Below, piece after piece: positions 80 to 23,594 of a stretch of 32,000 bases of DNA (position 1 is its first letter; each line of letters begins with the position of its first letter). The notes under the pieces were generated by a model, which ran no database searches, was not told the origin of the DNA, and was given only the letters and a program-made list of their open reading frames with translations. This stretch comes from an archaeon (lineage in GTDB: Archaea > Iainarchaeota > Iainarchaeia > Iainarchaeales > CSSED10-239): contig DAOOUC010000005.1 in the NCBI GenBank assembly GCA_035390665.1, positions 1 to 32,000 on the forward strand. Direction: 5' to 3'. Position numbers and translations under genes: made by a program.

Positions 80-502
80 CTATTCCACATCATATTGAAA
101 AGTAGCGGTTGTACTTGGATCATATCCTGTTTTGTATGTTTTTGCTTTTAATGTTAAATCTTGTGTTATGGTTATTGGGGAATTATAAATTGAACTGCTT
201 TCGGTTGGTTCACTCTCATCTAAAGTATACCTTATTATCCCGCCACTTACTATTGTACGTAGAACAATTTCTGTTCCAGAAGTAACTGTGCCACTTGGAT
301 AAGAAGAAAGTGGTGGATAAATTACATAATTTTTATTTAACTCATCTTTAAATATTTTATTTGATTCTATATTTAATTCTGTATTATCTACGGATTTTGG
401 TTTTATTGAAGAAAAATAAAAAGCGCCTACAATAATTGCACCAATTACAAATATTCCAAAAATTATTAACCCTTCTAATGATGCTTGTCCTTTAGATTTC
501 AT
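80..502 (-). CDS. Archaeal type IV pilin-like protein (class III signal peptide) with C-terminal CHB_HEX_C-like beta-sandwich domain
   Basis: The N-terminus MKSKGQASLEGLIIFGIFVIGAIIVGAF has a short basic leader, a KG|Q cleavage context, a QxSxE motif and a hydrophobic helix, as in DUF361/EppA-type archaeal prepilins. The C-terminal stretch GGIIRYTLDESEPTESSSIYNSPITITQDLTLKAKTYKTGYDPSTTATFQY fits the remembered chitobiase/hexosaminidase C-terminal consensus (IyYTtDGs.Pt.sS.lY..Pi.i....lkA.a...G...S). The start lies 2 nt after the stop of the upstream pilin gene (TAATTATG). Confidence 0.65.
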   Translation of the reverse strand: MKSKGQASLEGLIIFGIFVIGAIIVGAFYFSSIKPKSVDNTELNIESNKIFKDELNKNYVIYPPLSSYPSGTVTSGTEIVLRTIVSGGIIRYTLDESEPTESSSIYNSPITITQDLTLKAKTYKTGYDPSTTATFQYDVE

Positions 503-504
503 AA

Positions 505-957
505 TTATTCAGAAATGGTGTATGTTCTTTCTTGTATATTACCATAAATGCTGTTTACACAAGCAATAACTTTAATTGTTGTGGTGCTAGTTATTTCTAT
601 TGGTGTAGTATACAAAGAAGAAGTACAAGTTGGATTATTTCCATTAGTTGTATAATGCATTTTTACATCAGAACAACTGCCTGTGTAATTTAAAGATATC
701 AATTGAGAAGTAGAATAAGTTCCTCCTGTTGGAGAAAAACTAATTGAATTTAATTGACTAGTAGTACAATTTATATTTGTTTTTTCAAATGCTCTAGATC
801 CATCAAAATCAGTAGATTTTGCTTTTTTTATATTCGTGGTTATTGTTGAAATATAATAGGTTCCTGCAACAAGTGCGCCAATTGTTAAAACCGCCATAAT
901 AATTAGAACTTCTATAGACATCTGCCCTTTTTCTTTCGTATATAACCCTTTTAACAT
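505..957 (-). CDS. Archaeal type IV pilin-like protein (class III signal peptide) with C-terminal CHB_HEX_C-like domain
   Basis: The N-terminus MLKGLYTKEKGQMSIEVLIIMAVLTIGALVAG has a KGQxSxE motif followed by a hydrophobic helix. The C-terminal stretch ISFSPTGGTYSTSQLISLNY...VKMHYTTNGNNPTCTSSLYTTPIEITSTTTIKVIAC shows the same CHB_HEX_C-like pattern. An AGGT SD-like element lies about 8 nt upstream of the ATG. Confidence 0.65.
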   Translation of the reverse strand: MLKGLYTKEKGQMSIEVLIIMAVLTIGALVAGTYYISTITTNIKKAKSTDFDGSRAFEKTNINCTTSQLNSISFSPTGGTYSTSQLISLNYTGSCSDVKMHYTTNGNNPTCTSSLYTTPIEITSTTTIKVIACVNSIYGNIQERTYTISE

Positions 958-1050: not shown

Positions 1051-1149
1051 TTATTTTCTTCTGAAAATAATTATTAGTACAATTAAAACAATTAAACCTA
1101 AAACAATTAAGCCCATGTTTCCTAAAGTCAAGAAACCTGTTATTGCTGA
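1051..1149 (-). other. Tripartite C-terminal sorting-signal-like tail (Ser-rich linker, TGF motif, about 20-aa hydrophobic helix, RRK)
   Basis: The last 32 aa of the 976-aa protein are SAITGF-LTLGNMGLIVLGLIVLIVLIIIF-RRK. The architecture resembles PGF-CTERM-type archaeosortase signals, but with T in place of P. Confidence 0.5.
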
Positions 1150-3981
1150 AGAATTACTTTTTAAGATTATTTTCTCTTTAGCTAAAACTTCTTCAGTTGC
1201 TTTGTCTTTTATTTTCAAATCTAATGTTTTGTTTTCTTTTAAAATAGATGGAGAAACAATTTTATATTGTTTAATTATTTTTTCTCCTGGTAAAATATTT
1301 ATTTCTTTATCTCCTTCAATTACATAAGAGTCATCCAATCCAAAATCAATAATTGTATTTTGAGTAATTGAACTATTGTTCTTTAAATTAATTTTAAGAT
1401 AATATACCTTATCTTGATTTTCAACACTAGCTGATATTGTTATTGGATCTGTTTTAGGAGATAAATCTATAGTAATTGGATACTTCTTAATTAAATTATT
1501 TCCTGAATATAATTCAATGTAACCGTTATATGCTCTTTTTTCTGCAGACTCAGGAATACTTAAAGTTAATGAAATTGATTTTCTATCGTGTGCCAAAATT
1601 TCTAAAGTTTTTGGGGTACTTGAAAATGTTTCTGGAAATCCAGATAGTTTTAATGTAACTGATTTTGAAACAGCAAAACTATTATTTACTGTTGTTGAAA
1701 TGTTTACATTTTTTGACAATGGAGTTATTAGTGTTGGATAAGAAACAATATTTATTCTCTCACTTTCTGAAATATTATTGTTAACTACTGTAAAATATCT
1801 TTTTGAAGAACAATTATTTAAAAGTACATCAAAATAAATATTTGTTGGATTATTAAAATTAGATAATTCTATTTCTTTATTAAAACTATCAAATCCATTT
1901 AACAAAATTATATTTGGCTCTATTGCTAATCCATTTCCAGAAATTAAAATCTTTCCGCCTCTTGAAGACCTATTTATGAAATTTAAATTTAAGTATTCAA
2001 TTGCATTATTCACAGAAATACTTGTTGGAACAATCAATTCAGAATCACAAACGTCATCTGAAAGATTAATTTGTTTATTATCACTTACTATAAAACCAGA
2101 AGTTGTTTTTGTAAGATCACAGGTTTTTCCATCCTCAAACTTTCCTGAAATTAACATCTCTAAACTTCCATTCCCTGTAAACCCAACACTCATTGTGTTT
2201 TGAGAATTAGAATTAACAGTTAATTGCTTATTTGTTACATTTCCTGAAAGACCATATCTGTTTTGGAATAAAACATTTGTTACATAGAATTTTTTATTAG
2301 TATTATTAAATATTTGAATATTATTATTTGTACCTGGCGTTATTATTTTATTATACACCCCTATATTACTACACAATAAATCTGAAGAATCTAATATTCC
2401 TATATTAAATTGCTTAACTCCAATTTCTGTAGTTGAACAAGTTTTACCATCTGCAAATCTTCCACTTACTGCTATTGATCCTTTTGGATTTTCAGTAGTA
2501 CTTACTGAATTTGTAATTAATTCAAAAGCGATTGCTTCTTTGTCTTTAGATAATATGCTTGAATCATAATTTACATTTCTTATTTCTGCTTTATTTGAAT
2601 TGTCATTTATTGAAAGAGAAGTAATACTAAACTGTTGATTAGAATTGTTTGCTATAAAAAAACCATTCTCTTCTGAATAGTTCTCACTTGTGTTTTCTAA
2701 TTGTTGTATATTTGTTGTATACAAGACAATGTCTTTACAACTTTGAATTGTTGAATTATTATTTGAAGAACTCGAACTACTTGTTCCTTCGTTTCTAATT
2801 GTTATAACTAAATTTTCTCTTTTTGTACATTTCTTGTCTTCTCTTCCTGATCTAACTAAATATCCTTCTATTTCTAAATCTATATTTTTTGTAGTTGTGT
2901 AATTTACGCTTTCTGTTTCAAATTCAATTTCTATATCTTCTGTAGAGTCTTCTCTTACTATTGTTGGCTCGTCTCTTATTCTAGAAGATATATATGAATC
3001 GTCATCTATTGTTATATCATCAATTTCAAAATCATAATCTTCTGATTCGTTTACTATTTTTACTGTTTTAAGTTCAAATGATTCTTCATCTAAAGTAAAT
3101 TTAGTATCATCTATAGAAATATCTGAACAACTACTTGTATTATCATTATCTTCATCATTAATATGATAATCTACTGTGTAGGTTTTTAGACACTCTTGTC
3201 CTAAACCATATTTTGCTCTTACATAAATATCAAAGCTTGAGTCTTCATCGTCACTTATTGTATCAGACTCTAAACTTAAATTTACTGTTCCAACATAATT
3301 TCCTGAAACATAGTCAGGATAATCAATATCACTTATATCTAATTCTGAAGAATCATCTGCAGTAACTGATAAAACAGTTAATTCTTCACTTGAGTCGTTT
3401 TCTATGTATAGTTTATAATTTTCTTCATCATCTTCTTCTAAATAAATATCTCTTCTACCTGATAAAAAGAAACTTGAACAAGTTGTTTGTGTTTCTTGAG
3501 AGTTATCGTTTGGATTTGTATTATCATCTACAGGATAAAAATAAGAACTTGGGGCGCCAACAGGATAAACATATGCAGAGCTTGTAGTGTAATAGTTTTG
3601 ACCTGATTGAGCATTAACCTGAATTACATATCCTTGATATTCAGGAGTTAAATAGAAAAGATTAGGATAATAATATTCTGTTGCACTACTTAAATAATAA
3701 GTTAAACTTGGAACTGAATAGAGGTAATCAAGATTACCGGAACCGTTTATTCCATATACTTGCGGAGAAACAATTACTGGAACATAAGAATATCCTGATG
3801 GAATATCTTCTGCTCTAAGTTTTAATTTCATACTTACATTATCGTAATAATTACCATATTGTATACTTAGATATTCTATTCCAGAATCTGTATTAACATA
3901 AGAATAATCTATTGTAAATGGAACAGCATAAACTCCTGCCATTACTAATAACAAACTTAATATTATCATTAACTTTTTCAT
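1051..3981 (-). CDS. 976-aa secreted, probably glycosylated cell-surface (S-layer/adhesin-like) protein with a C-terminal sorting-signal-like anchor
   Basis: Sec-type signal peptide MKKLMIILSLLLVMAGVYA. The protein then has a Tyr-rich region, a D/E-rich region, five Cys-bracketed modules of about 100 aa, and two CARDB/NEW3-like beta-sandwich-looking segments (e.g. LTLSIPESAEKRAYNGYIELYS). By manual count there are about 28 N-x-S/T sequons. The C-terminus is SSAITGFLTLGNMGLIVLGLIVLIVLIIIFRRK. Confidence 0.8.
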   Translation of the reverse strand: MKKLMIILSLLLVMAGVYAVPFTIDYSYVNTDSGIEYLSIQYGNYYDNVSMKLKLRAEDIPSGYSYVPVIVSPQVYGINGSGNLDYLYSVPSLTYYLSSATEYYYPNLFYLTPEYQGYVIQVNAQSGQNYYTTSSAYVYPVGAPSSYFYPVDDNTNPNDNSQETQTTCSSFFLSGRRDIYLEEDDEENYKLYIENDSSEELTVLSVTADDSSELDISDIDYPDYVSGNYVGTVNLSLESDTISDDEDSSFDIYVRAKYGLGQECLKTYTVDYHINDEDNDNTSSCSDISIDDTKFTLDEESFELKTVKIVNESEDYDFEIDDITIDDDSYISSRIRDEPTIVREDSTEDIEIEFETESVNYTTTKNIDLEIEGYLVRSGREDKKCTKRENLVITIRNEGTSSSSSSNNNSTIQSCKDIVLYTTNIQQLENTSENYSEENGFFIANNSNQQFSITSLSINDNSNKAEIRNVNYDSSILSKDKEAIAFELITNSVSTTENPKGSIAVSGRFADGKTCSTTEIGVKQFNIGILDSSDLLCSNIGVYNKIITPGTNNNIQIFNNTNKKFYVTNVLFQNRYGLSGNVTNKQLTVNSNSQNTMSVGFTGNGSLEMLISGKFEDGKTCDLTKTTSGFIVSDNKQINLSDDVCDSELIVPTSISVNNAIEYLNLNFINRSSRGGKILISGNGLAIEPNIILLNGFDSFNKEIELSNFNNPTNIYFDVLLNNCSSKRYFTVVNNNISESERINIVSYPTLITPLSKNVNISTTVNNSFAVSKSVTLKLSGFPETFSSTPKTLEILAHDRKSISLTLSIPESAEKRAYNGYIELYSGNNLIKKYPITIDLSPKTDPITISASVENQDKVYYLKINLKNNSSITQNTIIDFGLDDSYVIEGDKEINILPGEKIIKQYKIVSPSILKENKTLDLKIKDKATEEVLAKEKIILKSNSSAITGFLTLGNMGLIVLGLIVLIVLIIIFRRK
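1810..3480 (-). repeat. Protein-level tandem array of five divergent Cys-bracketed modules within the surface protein
   Basis: All ten cysteines of the protein fall at aa 168/264, 285/385, 415/515, 537/621 and 645/724, giving intra-pair spacings of 96, 100, 100, 84 and 79 aa. Linkers between pairs are 21-30 aa. The closing motif recurs as SGRFADGKTCS / SGKFEDGKTCD / RSGREDKKCT / YGLGQECL. Confidence 0.6.
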
Positions 3982-4015
3982 AAATTTTCATTTCTCCAAA
4001 AATTATAGGGGGTTA

Positions 4016-4041
4016 AATGGCTCTTAGGGGAAAGAACCATT
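4016..4041 (-). promoter_or_regulatory. Hairpin/palindrome in the 5' leader of the surface-protein gene
   Basis: AATGGCTCT (4016-4024) and AGAACCATT (4033-4041) flank an 8-nt loop. On the minus-strand RNA this gives a 9-bp stem with one G-U pair. It sits in a locally GC-richer island about 35 nt upstream of the ATG at 3981. Confidence 0.3.
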
Positions 4042-4169
4042 AACTTTGTCTAATTAATAAATATTTATTGGAGCAAAACCTTTAAAAAGATAGTGATAGT
4101 GAAAACCTATTTGTTTTTAAATATTTCAAATATCTAATAATATAGAAATCCGCTAATTAATGAAAAAAT

Positions 4170-4556
4170 ATGAATGACGATAATTCCGGTACATCTCAAG
4201 ATATTAAGGCCTTACAATCAAGTATACTTGTTTTATCTGAAAAAATAAAATATTTAGTTCATAATGAGAAAATACTTAGTAGAAATATACTTGTTTTAAA
4301 TAAGAAAGTTGCAGCAAAAGCAGATAGTGTAGGATCCGGTAATGGACTTACAAGTGAACAAATGCAACAAATATTAACTGAGATTAAAGAAGTAAAATCT
4401 AAAATCAAATCCATTGAATCAACACTTGAAATGTTTTCTAAAAGATATGCTAAAGCAGAAGAACTTAAAGAAATGAAATACATTGTTGATAATATCAATC
4501 CATTAGAATACACTACAGTTTCACAAGTAAAGAATCTAATTAAAGAAAATAAATAA
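4170..4556 (+). CDS. Hypothetical coiled-coil protein (128 aa)
   Basis: This is the longest ORF in the interval, and its heptad-like charged helical sequence (IKEVKSKIKSIESTLEMFSKRYAKAEELKEMK) looks like real protein. The antisense ORF 4259-4513 looks like an artefact. I did not recognise a family. Confidence 0.5.
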   Translation: MNDDNSGTSQDIKALQSSILVLSEKIKYLVHNEKILSRNILVLNKKVAAKADSVGSGNGLTSEQMQQILTEIKEVKSKIKSIESTLEMFSKRYAKAEELKEMKYIVDNINPLEYTTVSQVKNLIKENK

Positions 4557-4559
4557 TAA

Positions 4560-5393
4560 TTATTTATATCTTTGAATTATATACTCTCTAAGGATATCAT
4601 AAACATTTCCTTTCTTTGTGCCATAATGTTCTAATATCAAAGAATTAAGTTTTGCTAAAATTTCTTGTTTTTCTAAAGGAGTTGAATCTTTTAATTCTCT
4701 TTTTATTAAATCAGAAGATAATATTTCTTGTTTTAATTCTGTTTTTGCTTTATTTTCTAAGGCATAACTAGAATCTATTTTTCGGGCTATTATCTTTAAT
4801 ACTTCTTTTTTTAAATCTTCAAATTGTGCCATTGTTATTCTTTTTTCTTTTGATAACAAAGCTAATTGATAATTAATTAAATCTAGAACTTTTTGCCTTT
4901 GAGATGGATGCAAATAATCGTAATAGTCTATGTCTTCTAATATCTTCTTTATTGCAGATTCTTTTGTAAATTCTCTTTCGGTTTTGTTATTTTTTTTAAT
5001 AAATGATCTAGTATCTAATTTTATCCTTTCTAAATCAGAATATAGTTTAGATTCATCAACATTTAAATCTAATTCGTTTAACTGTTCTAAAATAAAAGAC
5101 CTAATATCTCTTTGATTTTTTTTAGTTAAATCTTGTATTCTCAATGCTGCCTCTTTATTCTTATTTGTGCTTGTTCTAGAATGCCTTTCTTCAAAAAAAG
5201 AATTTAGTTTTGCAATTATTCTTTTAACATAGTATTCTTTTACTTTCTTATTTTGTGTTTCTCTATATAAATCTTGGAAATATTTTTTTTCTTGTATTTT
5301 TCTTAAAGTCGGAATAACAGTAGTAAATATTTTTCTGTTTTTTTCTGGAAGCACGGTTATTGGATTAGGCTTGTGTATTCTTTTAGGTTTCAT
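4560..5393 (-). CDS. Hypothetical lysine-rich helical protein (277 aa) with a basic N-terminal peptide
   Basis: A GTGAT SD-like element lies 5 nt upstream of the ATG, and the start is 6 nt downstream of the archaeosortase-family stop, which suggests an operon. The N-terminus is MKPKRIHKPNPITVLPEKNRK. I did not recognise a family. Confidence 0.6.
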   Translation of the reverse strand: MKPKRIHKPNPITVLPEKNRKIFTTVIPTLRKIQEKKYFQDLYRETQNKKVKEYYVKRIIAKLNSFFEERHSRTSTNKNKEAALRIQDLTKKNQRDIRSFILEQLNELDLNVDESKLYSDLERIKLDTRSFIKKNNKTEREFTKESAIKKILEDIDYYDYLHPSQRQKVLDLINYQLALLSKEKRITMAQFEDLKKEVLKIIARKIDSSYALENKAKTELKQEILSSDLIKRELKDSTPLEKQEILAKLNSLILEHYGTKKGNVYDILREYIIQRYK

Positions 5394-5399
5394 TAGTTA

Positions 5400-5951
5400 T
5401 CACTTATAAGAATATTTAAACCAGAAATAATAAAAACCAATTACAATAATTATTAAAAAAATTCTAAACAAGAAACCGTGCATAAACTCTGCAATAGCTA
5501 AACTGGAAGTAACTATTAATAATATGGTTAAAACAATTCTAAAAATATTAAAGAACACAACCACAGGAATAGTAAATAAAAAACCAATAATTCTTTTTTT
5601 TAGGTCTATTCCTTTAGATGCAAGTATTGCGCTAGCAAGTAAACAAAATTCAATAATTCCAGAACAAAGAAAACTAATAATTATTGGCTCTTTAATATTT
5701 GATACTGTTATCAAAGACAAATAATTAATATTATCAAAAATAAAAGAATTAGGAATATTAAATATTAATTTTAATATTACACTAGAAACATATCCATAAA
5801 AATAAATAATATAAGTATAAAATAAAGTAGAAAAAATCAAATAAAAAAAAGTAAAAAAAGCAATAAACAGAAACAAGAAATAAAACGCTTTCTTGTGTTC
5901 TTCTTTATTTTTTAGGTCTTTTTTTAATTGTTTAAAAAAAGTTTTTGCCAT
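5400..5951 (-). CDS. Exosortase/archaeosortase-family integral membrane protein (minimal, 183 aa)
   Basis: Polytopic hydrophobic protein with the ordered family motifs SFLCSGIIEF (Cys96), FFNIFRIVL (Arg138) and EFMHGFLF (His158). The Cys-to-Arg spacing of 42 aa is similar to that of characterised archaeosortase. An AGGT SD overlaps the rps8e stop. Confidence 0.65.
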   Translation of the reverse strand: MAKTFFKQLKKDLKNKEEHKKAFYFLFLFIAFFTFFYLIFSTLFYTYIIYFYGYVSSVILKLIFNIPNSFIFDNINYLSLITVSNIKEPIIISFLCSGIIEFCLLASAILASKGIDLKKRIIGFLFTIPVVVFFNIFRIVLTILLIVTSSLAIAEFMHGFLFRIFLIIIVIGFYYFWFKYSYK

Positions 5952-5958
5952 GAAAACC

Positions 5959-6354
5959 TTACTTTACAATAACACCTGAAACTAATCCGTCTTGTCCTGG
6001 TCTAGATGTTACTTTTACTTTTGTTTCTTTACCATTTAAATCAACCTTAAGAATTGCCCCTTTTGTTATTATCTTTTGTCTAACAAAATGTTTATTTGCT
6101 GGATTTTCTGTAACATCAAGTATTCTTCCCTTAATTGTTTTATTCCCTTCTGAAACAAGTACTGTTTGTGCATGAGAAATTTTTGTTTTTTCATTTCCAC
6201 CAACTGTTCTTGATTTAAATCTTTTATCTACTTTTGCAACAGTTGTTTTAGCAAATTTTCCACCTTTTTCACTTAAGGTTTTTGTTTTTGCATTTACTGC
6301 ATTATTTATTCCACCAGTGGATTTTCTTCTTGACACTTTTTTCCATTCAACCAT
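5959..6354 (-). CDS. rps8e: 30S ribosomal protein S8e
   Basis: N-terminal W..SRRKSTGG motif, plus ENPANKHFVRQKIITKGAI and VTSRPGQDGLVSGV, all characteristic of archaeal S8e. Length 131 aa. Confidence 0.9.
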   Translation of the reverse strand: MVEWKKVSRRKSTGGINNAVNAKTKTLSEKGGKFAKTTVAKVDKRFKSRTVGGNEKTKISHAQTVLVSEGNKTIKGRILDVTENPANKHFVRQKIITKGAILKVDLNGKETKVKVTSRPGQDGLVSGVIVK

Positions 6355-6496
6355 TTTTAATCATTCCTTTTTATTGTTTTGTTTACATAAGCCATGAAAA
6401 TAAGTAAACTTAAATATATTGTATAAATATAATAAATATAGAAAACTATTTAAAAAGAACATTTATTAGATATTTAAAATATAAACTTGATTATAT

Positions 6497-6868
6497 ATGC
6501 CTCGAAAAATTATAACCAGAAAAATCAATGGTGAAACATATGTTCTTTCAAGACAAAAAGCAAGAACAAAACCTAAGAGCATTAGTGCAAAAGAATTTTA
6601 CAAAATTTCTGGAGAATTATTGAAAGAAGGGGAAGAAGTAAATACACTCGGAGATGCATTAAATAACCCCGATGTTGTTGTTGGATTATCTAACGAAATG
6701 CATTCTAAAATTTCAGCAATACACGAGCAAAGATTATCTGAATTAAATAAAAAATTATTTGAATTGCAACAATTAGCTGCTAACGAAAACCTGCCTATAA
6801 ATGAAATTTTAGAAAAATTAAAGAAAAGAAAAATCATACCTAAAAGAAAACTAATAAGAAAAAGATAA
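6497..6868 (+). CDS. Hypothetical basic protein (123 aa)
   Basis: ORF with basic termini (MPRKIITRKING... and ...KKRKIIPKRKLIRKR) and a helical middle. The antisense ORF 6598-6873 is Phe/Leu-rich and looks like an artefact. Confidence 0.5.
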   Translation: MPRKIITRKINGETYVLSRQKARTKPKSISAKEFYKISGELLKEGEEVNTLGDALNNPDVVVGLSNEMHSKISAIHEQRLSELNKKLFELQQLAANENLPINEILEKLKKRKIIPKRKLIRKR

Positions 6869-6869
6869 T

Positions 6870-7538
6870 TCAATCAAAATCTCTAGTGAAAAGATAGCTC
6901 ATCTTTTCTGCTTTTTTTGGGCCCATTTTTTCTACTTCTTGTAATTGTTTCTTATCTGCATTTGCAATGGTTTTAATATTTTTAAACTTTCTTAAAAGAG
7001 ATTTAGCAAGACTTGGACCAATATCAGGAAAAGACTCTAAAATAAAAAGTTGTTGATCTGAAAAAGACATTTTAGTTTTACTAAATCTGTGCTTAATTTC
7101 TGTCTTTACACCATACTGTTCTCTTTTTGCAATAACATATAAGAAAAGAGCTGTTTCTTTTTGATTTCTTGTAAAATATATTGGCACCCTATAGTTTAAA
7201 CCAATGGCAGTCAATAAACCAATCATTGATTTATTGTTTATTCTATTACTATTTTCAGAAAAATTAATAATGCCTTCAACAATTAGACAAGGTTTTTTAA
7301 CTTTAGTTGATAACTCTTCTATCTGATTAAAAATCCTACCATCAATAATAGATGCCTCTAAATCCGCAATTGTTTTTCTTTCAACTAAAACATCTTCGCT
7401 TAATTGATAATCCCCAAGAGACAATTGCTCAAGCTTTATCTCAACTTTAAAATCATCAGTAGAAAGAGATTGAAGCTCTTGAGAAATTTGACTTACTCTT
7501 TCTCGTAAATCACAAATAATATGTATTTTTGAAGACAT
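6870..7538 (-). CDS. ERCC4/XPF-type nuclease with C-terminal (HhH)2 domain (Hef nuclease half)
   Basis: ERCC4 signature LSLGDYQLSEDVLVERKTIADLEASIIDGRIFNQ. C-terminal helix-hairpin-helix pair LESFPDIGPSLAKSLL...LQEVEKMGPKKAEKM. Confidence 0.85.
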   Translation of the reverse strand: MSSKIHIICDLRERVSQISQELQSLSTDDFKVEIKLEQLSLGDYQLSEDVLVERKTIADLEASIIDGRIFNQIEELSTKVKKPCLIVEGIINFSENSNRINNKSMIGLLTAIGLNYRVPIYFTRNQKETALFLYVIAKREQYGVKTEIKHRFSKTKMSFSDQQLFILESFPDIGPSLAKSLLRKFKNIKTIANADKKQLQEVEKMGPKKAEKMSYLFTRDFD

Positions 7539-7540
7539 AA

Positions 7541-9124
7541 TTAAAAATCACTTATTCTTTTTTGTTCTTTCTTCCTGACTTTTCTTATAGCTGTTTTATG
7601 AAAATTCTTAAGAATCGTTTTCATTCTTTTTTCTTTATTTTGAGAAACAGTAAAATATTTTTCATCAATTGTATCTTTATTAATCAATAATACAACTTTG
7701 CCAACATTAAATCTTCCTGTTCTTCCCCTTCTTTGTATATTTCTAATTTCTGAAGCTACGGCATCATAAAATATTACTAAATCAACAGACGGAATGTCTA
7801 GTCCTTCTTCGCCAACAGAAGTACATACTAGTATATTGTAAATTCCGGATTTAAAATCAAAAATAATGGATAACTGTTCTTTTTGAGAAAGGCCCTTATC
7901 AGAGGTTTTTGTGGCTTGTCCAACAAATCGTGTTGTTTTTATGCCTGTTTGTTTGTTTAAAAGTTCTACAAGGTTAGAGGCGTTGTCTCTAAAATTATTA
8001 AAAACCAGTATTTTTGATTTAGGGTTTTCTTTAATAAATTCTTTTACAATCTTTAATAATTCTTTTTCTTTTGAGTATTCTAATCTTTCTTTATTTTTTG
8101 ATAAATATAATACTATTTCTTTAAATTCATCAGAATTATAAAAAGAACTTGCAGCTTTACTAGAATGTTTTACTTTAGCTTCTTCAACTACTTTATTTAA
8201 ATAATTTTGAAATGCAACAAAGCCTTGTGTTTCAATTAATTCCAAAGCATGTAATGCTTTAAGAATAACAGATACAAAAGATATTGCAATAAAATGATTA
8301 GTTGATTTTGATTTATTTACTAATAAAAATAATTTTGCTTGAAGATCAATAATTTGTTTTTTTGTATAATTTTCAGGAATCACATATCCTAATCTTCTTA
8401 GTACCAAAATTTTAGATTTTATAAACGATTTAAGTTTTTCTGAAACAAATTTAGAATCTTTATCTAGTTCTGTATATATTGTTTCTATTTCTACATCATT
8501 AACATAATCTACAACATCAATATCTTCTTCTGTTTTTATCTCTATGTGTTTTATACCTAAATTATCTGCAACTTCTTGAATTTTTGATTTATTTGCACCA
8601 GGAGATGCAGTTAATCCCAGTCTTTTAGTATCTTCTGAAAAATATTGAGAAATGAAAGTATATGAATAATTCCCAACAGCTCTGTGTGCTTCATCAAAAA
8701 TAATTAAATTAAAATTATTTGAATCTAATAATTTTTCTTCTAAATCGTGCTGTATTGTTTGAGGAGTTGCACAAATTATTAGACCTTCTCCATCATAAAA
8801 TGCTTTTCTCTTTTCTTGAGTAATTTCCCCAGTTAAAAGAATTATTTTTTCTTCAGAAATTTTCAAGAAATTAAGAAGGCTTTTTTTATGTTGAGCAATC
8901 AATGGTTTTGTTGGAGATAAAAGAATGATTGATTTCTTAGGATTATAAGTATAAGCAATCAACAATACTGCAACAATGGTTTTACCTAAGCCCGTTGGAG
9001 CAACAACCAATGTACTTTCTTTAATTGCTTGAGCAGTAAGTAATTCTTGATAAAGTCTTTTCTTTATTGTTTCTTTCTTAACAAGCGGGTGTTCTATAAA
9101 AATAGAATTATCCATATTAAACAA
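7541..9124 (-). CDS. Hef/FANCM/Mph1-family SF2 DNA helicase (Hef helicase half)
   Basis: Motif I VVAPTGLGKT, motif II IIFDEAHRAV (DEAH), motif VI QRRGRTGR. An inserted helical domain lies between the RecA lobes. The stop codon is 2 nt before the nuclease ATG. Confidence 0.85.
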   Translation of the reverse strand: MFNMDNSIFIEHPLVKKETIKKRLYQELLTAQAIKESTLVVAPTGLGKTIVAVLLIAYTYNPKKSIILLSPTKPLIAQHKKSLLNFLKISEEKIILLTGEITQEKRKAFYDGEGLIICATPQTIQHDLEEKLLDSNNFNLIIFDEAHRAVGNYSYTFISQYFSEDTKRLGLTASPGANKSKIQEVADNLGIKHIEIKTEEDIDVVDYVNDVEIETIYTELDKDSKFVSEKLKSFIKSKILVLRRLGYVIPENYTKKQIIDLQAKLFLLVNKSKSTNHFIAISFVSVILKALHALELIETQGFVAFQNYLNKVVEEAKVKHSSKAASSFYNSDEFKEIVLYLSKNKERLEYSKEKELLKIVKEFIKENPKSKILVFNNFRDNASNLVELLNKQTGIKTTRFVGQATKTSDKGLSQKEQLSIIFDFKSGIYNILVCTSVGEEGLDIPSVDLVIFYDAVASEIRNIQRRGRTGRFNVGKVVLLINKDTIDEKYFTVSQNKEKRMKTILKNFHKTAIRKVRKKEQKRISDF

Positions 9125-11813: not shown

Positions 11814-12671
11814 TTACTTTAAATACTTAATTGTGTTAATTACAATTGCTTTACTAATCCCTGGATTAAAATTAAAATAAATTACTTTTCCCATAATTAA
11901 AGATTGCTCTGCTATTGCAACATATGGTTTCTTAACCCTTGGATCTTCTAAATAAGCAACTTCTTTACCAACAACTTGAACATCAAATGTTCTTGTTCTT
12001 ATTGGTCCACTTGTTTCAACTGCAGGAACTTGTAATATTCCACTCATTATTGGATGTTCTTCCATTACAGCATATAATGTTCCTTGCATATCAATTGGTT
12101 GTAAACATGATGGTCTTGATCCTACTACGTCACAACTAACTGGAACAATATCTCCAAAATTTGCTTGCCAACCAAGAACTGAAACATCGTCTGGTCTTTG
12201 TATTCCTGAATTTAAAACAATTATTAATTTTCCACCTTTCTTAACATAAGAAGTTATGGCATCAGCTGTTCTTCTTGAAATAGATTTATCAGTCTGCATT
12301 GATTGATCTAAAACTATAATATTATATCCTTTGATTCTTTCAACTGGATTATGTTGTATACTATCAAGAGTCATATATCTTACTTCTTTAATTAAATCTT
12401 TATTCTCTTGATCACTTAATATATTTCTAAATTCTTGATTTGGAGAACCTAATACTAAAATTCTTACTCCTGATCCGGAATTAAAGAATGATGCGCCTCC
12501 AGATAATATGTTTGTTTTAAAAACAACTAATAGTAAAACTATAATTATTACTGCAATTGGCAAAATGTTTTCCCATTTTACAGAAACTCCACCAAATAGT
12601 TTTTTTCCTGAATCTGAAGCCATTCCTGCATCAAAATCCGAACCGAAATCGTCTCCCATATCTTTAGGCAT
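11814..12671 (-). CDS. Hypothetical membrane-anchored protein with an extracytoplasmic alpha/beta domain (possibly class I glutamine-amidotransferase-like fold)
   Basis: Acidic N-terminus, one TM helix (ILPIAVIIIVLLLVVF), then an alternating beta-alpha pattern (VRILVLGS...YNIIVLDQ...GGKLIIVLNSG) and a Cys pair (VSCDVVGSRPSCL). The fold assignment is a guess. Confidence 0.5.
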   Translation of the reverse strand: MPKDMGDDFGSDFDAGMASDSGKKLFGGVSVKWENILPIAVIIIVLLLVVFKTNILSGGASFFNSGSGVRILVLGSPNQEFRNILSDQENKDLIKEVRYMTLDSIQHNPVERIKGYNIIVLDQSMQTDKSISRRTADAITSYVKKGGKLIIVLNSGIQRPDDVSVLGWQANFGDIVPVSCDVVGSRPSCLQPIDMQGTLYAVMEEHPIMSGILQVPAVETSGPIRTRTFDVQVVGKEVAYLEDPRVKKPYVAIAEQSLIMGKVIYFNFNPGISKAIVINTIKYLK

Positions 12672-12770
12672 TTAATATCACATTTTAATTTTTATATTAT
12701 AAATAAATTTATGGCATATTTGTTTTTTAAATGTTTCGTAAATTCTTAACTTTACAAAATTACTGTTTTT

Positions 12771-13997
12771 TCAAAAAATCTTCTCTTCTATCTCTAATAA
12801 TCTATTATATTTGACTGTTCTTTCTGATCTTGCTGGCGCTCCAAATTTTATGTAATCACTAGAAAGACCATAAGCTAAATCAGAAATAAAATTATCTTCT
12901 GTTTCTCCAGATCTGTGTGAAACAACAACTTTCCAATTTGCTTTCTTTGCTAAATTAAATGCATTTATTGATTCTGTTAATGTTCCTATTTGATTTACTT
13001 TTAAAAGAAGAGCATTACATTGTTTCTTAGTTATTGCTTGTTTTATTAGTGTTGGATTTGTTACTAATAAATCATCTCCAATAATATTTATTTTATTTCC
13101 AAATTTTTTTGTAAATTCAGCCCAGGGTTTTTTATCATCTTCTGAAAATGGGTCTTCTATTGAAGTAATATTATACTCTTTTAAAAGTTGAGAATAATAA
13201 TCCATCAATTCCAAAGATGAATGTTTTTTATTATTAATTAGATATTTTCCTTTCTCGTAAAATTCACTTGCTGCAACATCTATTCCTATATCTACTTTAT
13301 ATCCTGATTTCTTAATTGAATTCTCTAAAAGATCAAAAGCATCTCTTGGATCTGTTATATTTGGAGCAAAACCGCCTTCAAAACCAACATTTGTAGCTGA
13401 TGATCCATATTTTTTATTTATATTTTCTTTTAAAATTTGATAAATCTCACAAGAGGCTTGCAAATTTTTTGAAATTGTCTTTTCTTTAGGAATTATTTGA
13501 AATTCCTGAAATGCTAAATCCGTTCCAGCGTGCTTTCCTCCATTTATTATATTTAATAATGGAATTGGCATCTTTTCATTAATTTTATTTTCATTTAATC
13601 TAGAAATATATTTATATAATGAAATTCCAAGCTCTTGACTTGCTGCTCTTGCACAAGCAAGACTTACAGATAAAATTGCATTTGCTCCAAGATTTGATTT
13701 GTTTTCTGTACCATCTATTTCAATCATTAGATTATCAATATTACTTTGATCTAAAACAAACTCTCCAATTAGTTTTTTAGAAATCTTACAATTTACATTA
13801 TTGATTGCTTTAGTTACATCCTTTCCTCCGAATGCTTTTCCCTCATCTCTTAATTCTAAAGCTTCTCTTTTACCACTACTTGTTCCTGATGGAACACATG
13901 CATAAGCAATTGTATTATTAGTATAAACAAAAGTTTTAATTGTTGGTATTCCTCTTGAATCTAAAATTCTTATTGCCTTTATTTTTTTAATATTCAT
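12771..13997 (-). CDS. eno: Enolase (2-phosphoglycerate dehydratase)
   Basis: ILDSRG.PT N-terminal motif, the SHRSGETED signature, and the IKFGAPARSERTVKYNRLLEIE C-terminus. Confidence 0.95.
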   Translation of the reverse strand: MNIKKIKAIRILDSRGIPTIKTFVYTNNTIAYACVPSGTSSGKREALELRDEGKAFGGKDVTKAINNVNCKISKKLIGEFVLDQSNIDNLMIEIDGTENKSNLGANAILSVSLACARAASQELGISLYKYISRLNENKINEKMPIPLLNIINGGKHAGTDLAFQEFQIIPKEKTISKNLQASCEIYQILKENINKKYGSSATNVGFEGGFAPNITDPRDAFDLLENSIKKSGYKVDIGIDVAASEFYEKGKYLINNKKHSSLELMDYYSQLLKEYNITSIEDPFSEDDKKPWAEFTKKFGNKINIIGDDLLVTNPTLIKQAITKKQCNALLLKVNQIGTLTESINAFNLAKKANWKVVVSHRSGETEDNFISDLAYGLSSDYIKFGAPARSERTVKYNRLLEIEEKIF

Positions 13998-21291: not shown

Positions 21292-22785
21292 TTATTCTAT
21301 CGAAGGAACTATATATTCCCTTAACCACTCTATGTTTGCATCATTACCGTGTATATCTTTAATTGGTTTTTGATAAATAAACATTGCAAGTCTTTCAACT
21401 CCAAATCCCCATGCAATTACTGTTTTGTTGATCCCAAATGGTGCTAATGATTCTGGTCTAAATATTCCTGCATTAATTAATTCTATCCAAGTATTTGTTT
21501 TTTCATGATAACCACTTGCTTCAACACTTGGCTCTGTATATGGATTATATGTTGGTTTAAATCTTACTTTAGTTATCCCAAACTTACTAAAGAACTCTTT
21601 TATAAATGCCATTAAATCAGCTAAAGACAATTCATCACCAATAATAAATCCTTCAGCTTGATGAAATTCAGGTAAATGAGTGTAATCAATTGTTTCATTT
21701 CTAAAAACCTTATCAATACAGAAATACTTAGAATTTTCTTTTTCCTCTAAACTTAAATTATAGAATGTACGATAAGTTGTTGCAGTTGTGTGTGTTCTTA
21801 AAAGTAATTTCTTTGCAATCTGTTCATTCCAATCATATTGATATCCTTTAGAACCTGTTTTCCATCCGTTATTGTGTATTTCTGAAACCTTTAATATTAA
21901 ATCTTTATTTTTAGGTAAGTCTCCTGTTTCATTTAAATAAAAGGTATCTTGCATATCTCTTGCTGGGTGATTCTGAGAAATAAACATCGCATCCATATTC
22001 CAAAAACTAGTTTCAACATAAGGCCCTTTCATTTCTTTAAATCCCATTTGTAAATAAACATCTTTAATTCTTCTTGAAATTAATCTAAGTGGATGTAGTC
22101 GGCCCATTTCTTTAGCTGGAGGCAATTTAGTTACATCAAATTCTTTGAATTCTGTTGTTTTATACTTCTCTGTTCTTAACATCTCTGGGGTTAAATATAA
22201 TTCCTTATCTTCAAGTATTTCATAATTTATTATATTTAATAATTTATATTTCTTATTTTGTTTTTCTTTTTTAATAATAAATTCTTTTCTTTTTAGTAAG
22301 TCTTGTATTTGTGATTCTGAAATAATTTGATTATTTTTTATTGCATCTAATATCTTTTTTTGCTCTTCTACTATTTGCTTGTATTTTGAATCTACATTTA
22401 TTATTCCATTTTCTATAATTAAAAAACCTGCTTTTTTAGAGATACCAAATGCTAATGTAATATCTTCTTTCTTTAAATTTGGAATATTTAAATTATTTAA
22501 TTGAGACACATTAATTTTATTTGTTGACAAATAATCACAGAATCTCTCTTCTATAAAACCATTTTCTAATGCATCAATTCCATTTACGTCTAATTCGTAT
22601 ACATTATAATTTTCTGTAATTTCTTCTATTACCCCATTTAATTTCAGGGTTTCTATTGATCTTCTTATCTTGTCTTTTTGAGAATCAGTATTTAATATAT
22701 CATCTAAAGAAATCTCTTTTTCTTTTTTTATTAACTCATATACTTTTGCATCTATTTCTGTGAAATTCAAAACCATAAATACCAT
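21292..22785 (-). CDS. pheS: Phenylalanine--tRNA ligase alpha subunit (archaeal type)
   Basis: Class II motifs HPLRL..., FRNETIDYTHLPEFHQAEG (motif 2) and GFGVERLAMF (motif 3). N-terminal winged-helix repeats. Confidence 0.92.
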   Translation of the reverse strand: MVFMVLNFTEIDAKVYELIKKEKEISLDDILNTDSQKDKIRRSIETLKLNGVIEEITENYNVYELDVNGIDALENGFIEERFCDYLSTNKINVSQLNNLNIPNLKKEDITLAFGISKKAGFLIIENGIINVDSKYKQIVEEQKKILDAIKNNQIISESQIQDLLKRKEFIIKKEKQNKKYKLLNIINYEILEDKELYLTPEMLRTEKYKTTEFKEFDVTKLPPAKEMGRLHPLRLISRRIKDVYLQMGFKEMKGPYVETSFWNMDAMFISQNHPARDMQDTFYLNETGDLPKNKDLILKVSEIHNNGWKTGSKGYQYDWNEQIAKKLLLRTHTTATTYRTFYNLSLEEKENSKYFCIDKVFRNETIDYTHLPEFHQAEGFIIGDELSLADLMAFIKEFFSKFGITKVRFKPTYNPYTEPSVEASGYHEKTNTWIELINAGIFRPESLAPFGINKTVIAWGFGVERLAMFIYQKPIKDIHGNDANIEWLREYIVPSIE

Positions 22786-23594
22786 TACTTATTTTTTTTA
22801 CTTACAAATTCAAAATCTACAATTTCGTTAATTTGTTTTCTTGGTTTAATAACAGAGTGCTTTGTAATAAATTTTTTTATACCATTATTTACTCTATTTC
22901 TGAAAATCAATAAAATTAAAACAATTATAAGAATTATAAATAAAACTGTAAAATATGATTTGTTAAGATAATCTTTTGAAAAAATATTAGATACAACAAA
23001 TGTTGGCTTTGGTGGTTTTTTTTCAATTGCAATCAATCTTAATTCATTTGTAGAAATTCCACTCCAAATTATATTTCGATTATTTTGTGTTGCTTGAGGA
23101 GAAATGTCTCCTATAATCAAAGGATCATATAATGAAATTTCAACTTGGGATTCTTTAGGTATGTTGAATAAACCATTTACTACAAATTGCCTAAATAAGT
23201 TTTCATTAAATCTCCAAATTATTTGATCTTGATAATCCAAATATTTTATTAAACTTAAATCATATAATTCATATTCTATTCTTAATGAGGCATTAACTTC
23301 ATCAAAAGAAATTTTTATGTTTTTTATTTTGTCTTCATTAATATATATGTGCGGGGTAATGTCTGGATTTATTTTTTGTAGCTCTATTAAATCTGTACTA
23401 GATTTTAAAATCTTAGATTTAAAATCAGATAATTCAGATAAATCACCATAATTAATTTTCCAAATTTCTATAACTTTAGAGTTTGTTGGAGAATAAACCT
23501 CTACAGAAATGTCAAAACTATCTAAAGATAATGAGTATACGGGCATTAATAAAAATAACACCCCTATCAAAATCAATATGTGTTTTGTATTCAT
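22785..23594 (-). CDS. Hypothetical type I membrane protein (269 aa)
   Basis: Signal peptide/anchor MNTKHILILIGVLFLLMPVYS, an ectodomain of about 190 aa, a TM helix FTVLFIILIIVLILLIF, and a basic cytoplasmic tail. Its stop overlaps the pheS start (TAATG). Confidence 0.6.
   Translation of the reverse strand: MNTKHILILIGVLFLLMPVYSLSLDSFDISVEVYSPTNSKVIEIWKINYGDLSELSDFKSKILKSSTDLIELQKINPDITPHIYINEDKIKNIKISFDEVNASLRIEYELYDLSLIKYLDYQDQIIWRFNENLFRQFVVNGLFNIPKESQVEISLYDPLIIGDISPQATQNNRNIIWSGISTNELRLIAIEKKPPKPTFVVSNIFSKDYLNKSYFTVLFIILIIVLILLIFRNRVNNGIKKFITKHSVIKPRKQINEIVDFEFVSKKNK

Follow-up and report, generated by a model that had tools for sequence, protein, structure and literature searches.

How archaea of the DPANN group build and anchor their envelopes is largely unexplained. 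For a cultivated Micrarchaeon, the mechanism of S-layer anchoring has been described as open (bioRxiv 10.1101/2021.04.28.441871), and our literature search found nothing that links archaeosortases to DPANN envelope proteins. The locus considered here, in a 32-kb stretch of contig DAOOUC010000005.1 (positions 1 to 32000, hereafter the window), gives the question a concrete form. It contains an open reading frame (ORF; 5400-5951) for a membrane protein of 183 residues with the signature residues of the exosortase/archaeosortase superfamily and, two genes away, an ORF (1051-3981) for a secreted protein of 976 residues, here called the giant protein, which ends in a hydrophobic helix and a short basic cluster. 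Is this tail a sorting signal on which the enzyme acts, or is it an ordinary membrane anchor? On balance, we lean towards the former: the two would constitute a dedicated one-enzyme/one-target archaeosortase system of Iainarchaeota, with cleavage proposed by analogy. The source clade, judged from genome loci, is Iainarchaeota/Diapherotrites (DPANN), the members of which include Ca. Forterrea multitransposorum, with a complete genome (CP045477.1), Ca. Iainarchaeum and several 'ainarchaeum' metagenome-assembled genomes. Related genome loci that were fetched are labelled L001 onward, and homologous proteins carry P numbers.

The enzyme

An earlier reading of the window, made from the sequence only, had assigned ORF 5400-5951 to the exosortase/archaeosortase family on its ordered Cys, Arg and His motifs, and had proposed searches with models of this family as the check. 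The motifs do lie in order along the protein (FLC96SG, NIFR138IV and FMH158GF), and the NCBIfam signature model TIGR04178 matches at 42.9 bits (E = 4.5e-11; curated cut-off 23), from residue 92 to 179 and over profile positions 3-93 of 97, which bears the assignment out. The second of the proposed models, Pfam PF09721 (Exosortase_EpsH), gives 14.9 bits, below its gathering score of 25.7; precomputed PF09721 matches are present on some homologues of the enzyme (P0002, P0005). The database label is merely 'exosortase/archaeosortase family protein', and the enzyme is under the cut-off of every named subfamily model: XrtG gives 18.5 bits (cut-off 102.75), ArtD 11.5 (125) and pacearchaeosortase 10.1 (80). 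The named subfamilies include ArtA to ArtH, pacearchaeosortase, heimdallarchaeosortase and XrtG, and the best E-value over 15 homologues is only 1e-6 to 1e-7.

These 15 close homologues, of 173-191 residues and 49-99% identity, all match TIGR04178, and in them C96, N135, R138, H158 and R163 are invariant. The first four are also invariant in 20 species-level orthologues from the genome loci (45-66% identity), one of which has Lys in place of R163. A profile search run exhaustively over 1.84 billion representatives (E<=1e-3) yielded 317 clusters, just two of them at E<=1e-30 and nearly all with a length of 160-250 residues. An alignment of 115 of these small relatives, all of which match TIGR04178, shows no variation at N135, R138 or H158 and at least 90% conservation of C96; a strong match to any named subfamily was found for none of the 115. 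The Cys, Arg and His are suspected of forming the superfamily's catalytic triad (Haft 2023). The enzyme therefore genuinely belongs to the exosortase/archaeosortase superfamily, in a clade without a name. The description of the enzyme as 'minimal' has to be given up: small size is ordinary here, given that the ArtD and pacearchaeosortase profiles have 150 and 167 positions, respectively, and that small archaeosortases, judged by the profile matches, are common (~317 clusters) and mostly unnamed. One homologue, P0110 (1102 residues), has an archaeosortase-like domain at residues 7-183 followed by ~900 residues that are partly rich in Ala, Ser and Gly; either an enzyme-substrate fusion or an artefact of gene calling could account for it.

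The AlphaFold2 model of the enzyme is confident (predicted local distance difference test, pLDDT, 95.7; predicted template-modelling score, pTM, 0.87). It has helices at residues 2-14, 16-43, 45-64, 99-111, 117-148 and 151-182, with a small beta-sheet at 68-92, and the five long hydrophobic helices mark a polytopic membrane protein, the topology of the N-terminal half being ambiguous. No resembling solved structure was found by sequence search or by fold search. By the positive-inside rule, a cytoplasmic position is expected for the loop at 112-120 (KGIDLKKR) and for the C-terminus (KYSYK); C96, R138 and H158 would then lie toward the outer leaflet, the side on which the motif of the putative substrate is also placed. 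The invariance of Cys, Asn, Arg and His, together with the confident compact fold, would indicate that an active site is under purifying selection.

The giant protein and its tail

The giant protein starts with MKKLMIILSLLLVMAGVYA and ends with ...KSNSSAITGFLTLGNMGLIVLGLIVLIVLIIIFRRK. A signal peptide was recognized by inspection, and equivalent N-termini are found in all orthologues. There are 18 homologues at 39-97% identity and further ones from the genome loci, with overall identity down to ~31%. The AlphaFold2 model (mean pLDDT 74.8) is all-beta, with approximately eight or nine beta-sandwich domains, a disordered segment at 946-956 and a terminal helix at 956-975. Matches among solved structures are generic tandem Ig/ASH/macroglobulin (MG-type) arrays only, with TM-scores near 0.1, and no Pfam or NCBIfam family, S-layer families included, is above cut-off; the database label is 'hypothetical protein'. 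The modelled fold would suit a surface-layer or adhesin-type protein and is non-diagnostic; the 'dominant surface protein' of the sequence-only reading is a conjecture. A specific S-layer assignment was dropped, the fold search having given generic arrays alone. Glycosylation was considered from the sequons: approximately 28 N-x-S/T sites had been put forward, and the count is 25 (26 if N-P-S/T is included) versus 18.3 +/- 3.7 in composition-preserving shuffles. Enrichment is marginal at p about 0.05, and it was set aside as a sign of glycosylation.

The C-terminus reads ...KSNSSAITGF-LTLGNMGLIVLGLIVLIVLIIIF-RRK. Of the elements of a tripartite sorting signal, the hydrophobic transmembrane (TM) segment and the terminal two to five basic residues are present (LTLGNMGLIVLGLIVLIVLIIIF followed by RRK). 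The supposed Ser-rich linker amounts to five residues, SNSSA, and shows no Ser/Thr enrichment, the Ser+Thr fraction being 0.17 in the 30 residues preceding the motif versus 0.20 in the whole protein.

Conservation of the motif was measured in an alignment of 30 giant-protein orthologues. F950 is 97% conserved and, of the last 85 residues, is the sole column to reach 90%; Ser or Thr (Ala once) occupies position 948, and Gly or Ala position 949 throughout. The consensus [ILMF]-[ST]-[GA]-F-[FL]-x-[LF] stands directly against the TM helix, with no spacer, in 30/30 sequences, an arrangement known for PEP-CTERM and PGF-CTERM (Haft). The 'TGF' of the sequence-only reading gives way to [ST][GA]F[FL]. 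That reading had named loss of the motif in orthologues as a refuting result; in this modified form it passes, a juxtamembrane motif being kept in all of them. The core GF is that of PGF-CTERM, with Ser/Thr in place of Pro. The four-residue motif window ranks 66th of 973 by conservation, in the top 7% of the giant protein; it is conserved, not outstanding. With few exceptions (KNK, RKH and KKKK), giant proteins of the window's subclade have three basic residues at their very end.

When three tails were scanned with sorting-signal models (E up to 10), nothing scored above cut-off: the LPXTG anchor model gave 15.0 bits (cut-off 15.9), Heimdall-CTERM 12.9 on one orthologue tail (24) and PACE-CTERM-PROT (NF033506) 6.8 (110). 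That the tail lies outside the named classes was rightly suspected, as the PGF-, PEF-, PIP-, VPXXXP- and Heimdall-CTERM and PACE-CTERM-PROT models all fail to match it. Several unrelated carriers per genome, a criterion of Haft (2023), were not seen: a single carrier occurs per locus across the window and ~330 kb of related Iainarchaeota sequence. Within the same ~330 kb, the motif is missing from three other signal-peptide proteins with C-terminal TM anchors, and no other candidate substrate was seen. The product of window ORF 22785-23594 (-), of 269 residues, served for comparison as an ordinary tail anchor from the window itself: it has a signal peptide, a C-terminal TM helix and a basic cytoplasmic tail of 38 residues without a GF motif. 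In one relative, L001, a secreted NosD/beta-helix protein of 498 residues (12158-13654) is inserted between enzyme and giant; it ends ...LLSEFKNSWRA-TM-KHKG, with a Phe near the helix, and the family motif is absent.

Gene order around the pair

Enzyme and giant protein had been noted as neighbours, and this arrangement extends to all related loci that can be judged. The order rpS8e, enzyme, a variable gene in some lineages, an opposite-strand gene for a 128-residue protein and then the giant gene is found in 19/19 informative loci, including the complete Ca. Forterrea genome, and the distance from enzyme to giant is 0.5-3 kb in each. The informative loci are all those with sequence downstream of the enzyme, two of them with partial giants at contig ends. 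Gene neighbourhood of enzyme and target is a criterion for dedicated one-to-one systems (Haft 2023), and the arrangement fits it. It should be noted that the region as a whole is collinear across the clade, with L1-L10-L12-Hef-S8e on one side and either the L3-L4-L23-L2-S19 operon or pilin genes on the other.

Long cytoplasmic extensions in the deep branches

The giant protein of the window has three residues past the TM helix, and the same layout is found in its subclade. Intermediate basic tails of 10-17 residues occur in L002, L010, L014, L016 and L017, and 53-100 cytoplasmic residues follow the helix in six loci representing five distinct lineages (L012, L013, which is Forterrea, L018, L019, L020 and L021). 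Five of these six long tails share a conserved end, [KR][QE][IV]T[LF]x[DEQ][LV][DE], as in QITLGELD or QVTLKELETLD; further such ends are QITLKQLDEAKN, EVTFADVDALNKK and QVTLKELETLDIKN. The tripartite layout of the sequence-only reading is thus found at the extreme C-terminus in the window's subclade, to which that position is specific, and not in these six loci. ArtA is stated to cleave a substrate with an internal tripartite signal in a review that cites Abdul Halim 2017 for the point (PMC6098224). Because of this precedent, and because the signature residues of the enzyme are equally invariant in the long-tailed lineages, a long tail is compatible with processing.

In the deeper lineages, the gene directly upstream of the giant encodes a secreted Tyr/Asn-rich protein of 118-134 residues (FDVTDISYSYVSYNYPYYPN...), absent from the window, with a resemblance to the N-terminal region of the giant itself, IDYSYVN....

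Distant relatives in Micrarchaeota

Distant relatives of the enzyme, at 24-40% identity, are found largely in Micrarchaeota. In five of seven Micrarchaeota loci (L022, L023, L025, L026 and L027), there is a cassette of a small archaeosortase, a class-III-like protein of ~500 residues (KRGFVAAPLIGT...) and a giant of 1147-3050 residues, two of the giants being truncated where the contig or locus ends. Four of the five giants contain CarboxypepD_reg repeats. The two with termini read, those of L022 and L025, carry a signal anchor at the N-terminus and lack a C-terminal tail. The cassettes are often near type IV pilus ATPase and platform genes (T2SSE/T2SSF), and the T2SSE gene of L026 contains an intein.

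L023 also encodes two secreted paralogues (1618-3870 and 4241-7897, of 750 and 1218 residues), which lie 2 kb upstream of an archaeosortase of 289 residues and end in AAGLDFTT-TM-GRGKKK and AGGFDATT-TM-ARKKKK. These tails, from another phylum, may represent a GF-type sorting signal akin to the present one. The feature that is general across DPANN is the presence of small archaeosortases within surface or pilus-like gene clusters, with the GF-type tail recurring at least once.

Known archaeosortase systems

ArtD (TIGR04175), with its PIP-CTERM target in Thermococcales, is likewise a very small archaeosortase. It is reportedly a dedicated system with the target encoded nearby, and the NCBIfam naming agrees. 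Class III signal-peptide proteins are found in the ArtD cluster, and two pilin-like ORFs of the window give weak matches, below cut-off, to TIGR04205, a class III signal-peptide family that goes with ArtD/PIP-CTERM. Unlike in the ArtD system, the enzyme is below the cut-off of the ArtD model, the tail has neither a PIP motif nor a PIP-CTERM match, the lineage is DPANN and the pilin genes are missing from the deeper Iainarchaeota.

Pacearchaeosortase (NF033505, from Pacearchaeota) is also minimal in size and also from DPANN, and NCBIfam pairs it with a large 'PACE-CTERM-PROT putative S-layer protein' (NF033506), which is the same one-to-one concept. The present pair differs from it in phylum and in target family, as well as in the low scores of both enzyme and tail given above. 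No published description of pacearchaeosortase was found in our literature search. Heimdallarchaeosortase (NF045528), with Heimdall-CTERM (NF045529), is similarly a lineage-specific enzyme with its own cognate C-terminal signal; its match to the orthologue tail is faint, and the enzyme is unmatched.

ArtA is larger and has more TM helices than the 183-residue enzyme. The ArtA/PGF-CTERM system, which acts on the S-layer glycoprotein of Haloferax volcanii, has in common with the present pair the superfamily, the Cys/Arg/His signature and a large glycosylatable surface target. The target motif also resembles the giant tail in its G-F core, set against the TM helix, and in the basic residues that come after it. 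The differences are Ser/Thr in the place of Pro, the lack of a Thr/Ser-rich linker, an ArtA model match that is below cut-off and, in some lineages, the long cytoplasmic extensions. ArtA/PGF-CTERM is the experimentally supported model for cleavage and lipid attachment (PMC6098224; Haft 2023), with 1 to 52 targets per genome (PMC6098224).

Interpretation

A dedicated pair is favoured because the enzyme matches TIGR04178, retains its invariant residues and gives a confident model, and because the giant protein combines a signal peptide with a motif set against the TM helix and a basic end. It is favoured further by the retention of [ST(A)][GA]F in all orthologues despite ~31% overall identity, by the lack of the motif in three other tail-anchored secreted proteins of the sampled loci, by the adjacency of the two genes, and by the similar tail beside a distant Micrarchaeota enzyme together with the ArtA precedent for an internal signal. 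The pair would probably be analogous to ArtD/PIP-CTERM or to pacearchaeosortase and its putative S-layer target. In the mechanism that we envisage, the 976-residue protein would be exported through Sec by means of its N-terminal signal peptide, and the C-terminal helix would at first hold it in the membrane with RRK in the cytoplasm. The enzyme, with C96, R138 and H158 predicted to face the outer leaflet, would then recognize [ST]-[GA]-F-[FL] and, by analogy, cleave via a thioacyl intermediate on Cys96. The new C-terminus would probably be transferred to a membrane lipid, as with ArtA and PGF-CTERM in Haloferax.

Several points weigh against this scheme. Phe is the only near-invariant residue of the motif, and an interfacial aromatic could belong to an ordinary TM anchor; the Ser/Thr-rich linker typical of archaeosortase substrates is absent. 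Adjacency may reflect inherited gene order rather than functional coupling, and since the whole region is collinear it is not independent evidence in each genome. The conserved cytoplasmic end of the long-tailed lineages suggests that the tail is kept there, or at any rate has a function, and the relatives in five of the seven Micrarchaeota loci adjoin giants reported to be without a C-terminal tail (termini read in two). Were the giant tail a plain type I membrane anchor, with an interfacial Phe, an enzyme that acts on substrates elsewhere and a shared neighbourhood that is conserved gene order, then the middling rank of the motif window, the collinearity of housekeeping genes along with the pair, the extensions with their conserved end in six loci, the missing linker and the failure of every sorting-signal model to match would all be accommodated. 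We regard such an anchor as unlikely, though as a serious contender, because it sits less easily with the motif's constancy against the helix in proteins that have otherwise diverged so far, with the three tail-anchored secreted proteins of the sampled loci that do without it, and with the lack of any other candidate substrate in the Iainarchaeota sequence available. In addition, the small archaeosortases ArtD and pacearchaeosortase have curated partner-target models.

It is also conceivable that the enzyme serves a surface-appendage or pilus-like assembly with the class III signal-peptide proteins, in a role other than cleavage of a C-terminal signal. Pilin-like proteins do follow the giant in the window's subclade, with TIGR04205 matches, and the Micrarchaeota enzymes are followed by the ~500-residue class-III-like protein and by giants of 2000-3000 residues without C-terminal tails, near T2SSE/T2SSF. 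The TIGR04205 scores are under cut-off, however, and the deeper Iainarchaeota, which have the L3 operon in place of the pilin genes, keep both enzyme and motif; moreover, we know of no archaeosortase that acts on class III signal peptides. This proposal is consequently judged improbable. Scarcely credible, in our view, is that the enzyme is a non-catalytic remnant or has some other membrane function, such as that of a scaffold or transporter. Its very small size, the Exosortase_EpsH score below gathering and the lack of a solved structure for comparison could be cited for this, but the constancy of Cys, Asn, Arg and His over the 20 orthologues, and of Asn, Arg and His (with C96 close behind) over the 115 relatives, speaks for catalysis, as does the confident compact fold, which points to purifying selection on the active site.

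A dedicated pair might take a further form in the deep branches (Forterrea, Iainarchaeum). There, the archaeosortase would cut an internal signal, the ectodomain would be lipid-anchored, and a fragment comprising the TM helix and 53-100 cytoplasmic residues, the conserved QITLGELD-type end of which would have a function of its own, would be released; we consider this highly improbable. On the same reading, the fragment might, for example, link the assembly of the envelope with a partner in the cytoplasm, of which the strictly co-located 128-residue coiled-coil protein is one candidate, and the anchoring lipids would be host-derived, the symbionts being lipid-auxotrophic. If true, this would be sortase-driven signalling resembling regulated intramembrane proteolysis, which is undescribed for this enzyme family.

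Significance

The pair is strictly conserved, core to the genome and wedged among ribosomal protein genes, and it offers a testable anchoring mechanism for Iainarchaeota. For genome annotation, the catalogue gains an archaeosortase subfamily that has no name and a [ST][GA]F-type signal that no model covers, and the approach could be extended to the ~317 small-archaeosortase clusters, which are unclassified. The system is mechanistically unsurprising and leaves the current view of archaeosortase action unchanged. Its unusual element is the long conserved cytoplasmic extension of the deep branches, which would be a novel twist if processed.

Other features of the locus

The coordinates are collected in Table 1. 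The gene directly upstream of the enzyme encodes ribosomal protein S8e; the syntenic gene of 131 residues carries PF01201 in L001-L004. It overlaps the enzyme gene by 4 nucleotides in L001 and L003 and is separated from it by a 7-nucleotide gap in the window, and because the genes overlap or nearly abut, the enzyme is likely to be co-transcribed with rpS8e. Two genes lie between enzyme and giant. The 128-residue protein is present in 20/20 Iainarchaeota loci at 61-86% identity, which makes it better conserved than either enzyme or giant; searches gave generic coiled-coil matches only, which were treated as noise, and it is possibly part of the module. The 277-residue protein has homologues in some loci only (29-33% identity) and no family in Pfam/NCBIfam scans, and it is probably not a core part.

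Table 1. Features of the window and of related loci, with strand and basis of assignment.
Feature	Coordinates	Strand	Basis
Archaeosortase-family membrane enzyme, 183 residues, unnamed Iainarchaeota subfamily	5400..5951	-	TIGR04178 match
Codon of Cys96, putative catalytic nucleophile	5664..5666	-	Conservation
Codon of Arg138, signature Arg, motif N135-x-x-R138	5538..5540	-	Conservation
Codon of His158, signature His, motif H-G-F-L-F-R163	5478..5480	-	Conservation
Secreted multi-domain beta-sandwich protein, 976 residues, candidate substrate	1051..3981	-	ORF, homologues, AlphaFold2
Sec-type signal peptide of giant protein, residues 1-19, MKKLMIILSLLLVMAGVYA	3925..3981	-	Sequence inspection
Juxtamembrane motif T948-G949-F950, family consensus [ST]-[GA]-F-[FL]-x-[LF]	1132..1140	-	30-orthologue alignment
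C-terminal TM helix of giant protein, residues 951-973	1063..1131	-	Sequence; AlphaFold2 helix 956-975
Terminal basic cluster R974-R975-K976 of giant protein	1054..1062	-	Sequence
Conserved coiled-coil protein, 128 residues, divergent from giant gene	4170..4556	+	Synteny; possibly part of module
Basic non-membrane protein, 277 residues, between enzyme and giant; variable	4560..5393	-	Homologues in some loci
Pilin-like protein, class III signal peptide (KGQ), CHB_HEX_C_1/Fn3_assoc domains	505..957	-	Pfam
Second pilin-like class III signal-peptide protein	80..502	-	Pfam
Ribosomal protein S8e gene, directly upstream of enzyme	5959..6354	-	Synteny, PF01201 in relatives
Long-tailed giant orthologues, 53-68 residues past helix	L012 11823-14966, L013 11821-14964, L019 12240-15344, L020 3908-7051, L021 5763-8861		
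Tyr/Asn-rich small protein	L012 11420-11794, L013 11437-11793, L017 11097-11465, L018 4720-5124, L019 11809-12204, L020 3505-3870, L021 5330-5722		

The window, which has a G+C content of ~26%, also carries genes for ribosomal proteins, PheRS, PCNA, Lon, enolase and a Hef-type helicase/nuclease, a content to be expected in an archaeon with a small genome. Searches across its 32 kb found neither tRNA genes nor an Rfam family at gathering threshold.

Past the giant, the first pilin-like protein of the window matches CHB_HEX_C_1 at 54.3 bits, with Class_IIIsignal at 18.1 bits and TIGR04205 at 25.2 bits, both below cut-off (65 for TIGR04205); the second gives 57.2 bits for CHB_HEX_C_1 and 21.2 bits, again below cut-off, for TIGR04205. 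Class III signal-peptide proteins (KGQ; with CHB_HEX_C_1, Fn3_assoc or DUF285) are encoded downstream of the giant throughout the window's subclade. The variation of these pilin-like proteins among relatives, from 140 to 1047 residues and in their adhesin-type domains, suggests a variable surface-appendage cluster; L003 14771-17914 has seven DUF285 repeats.

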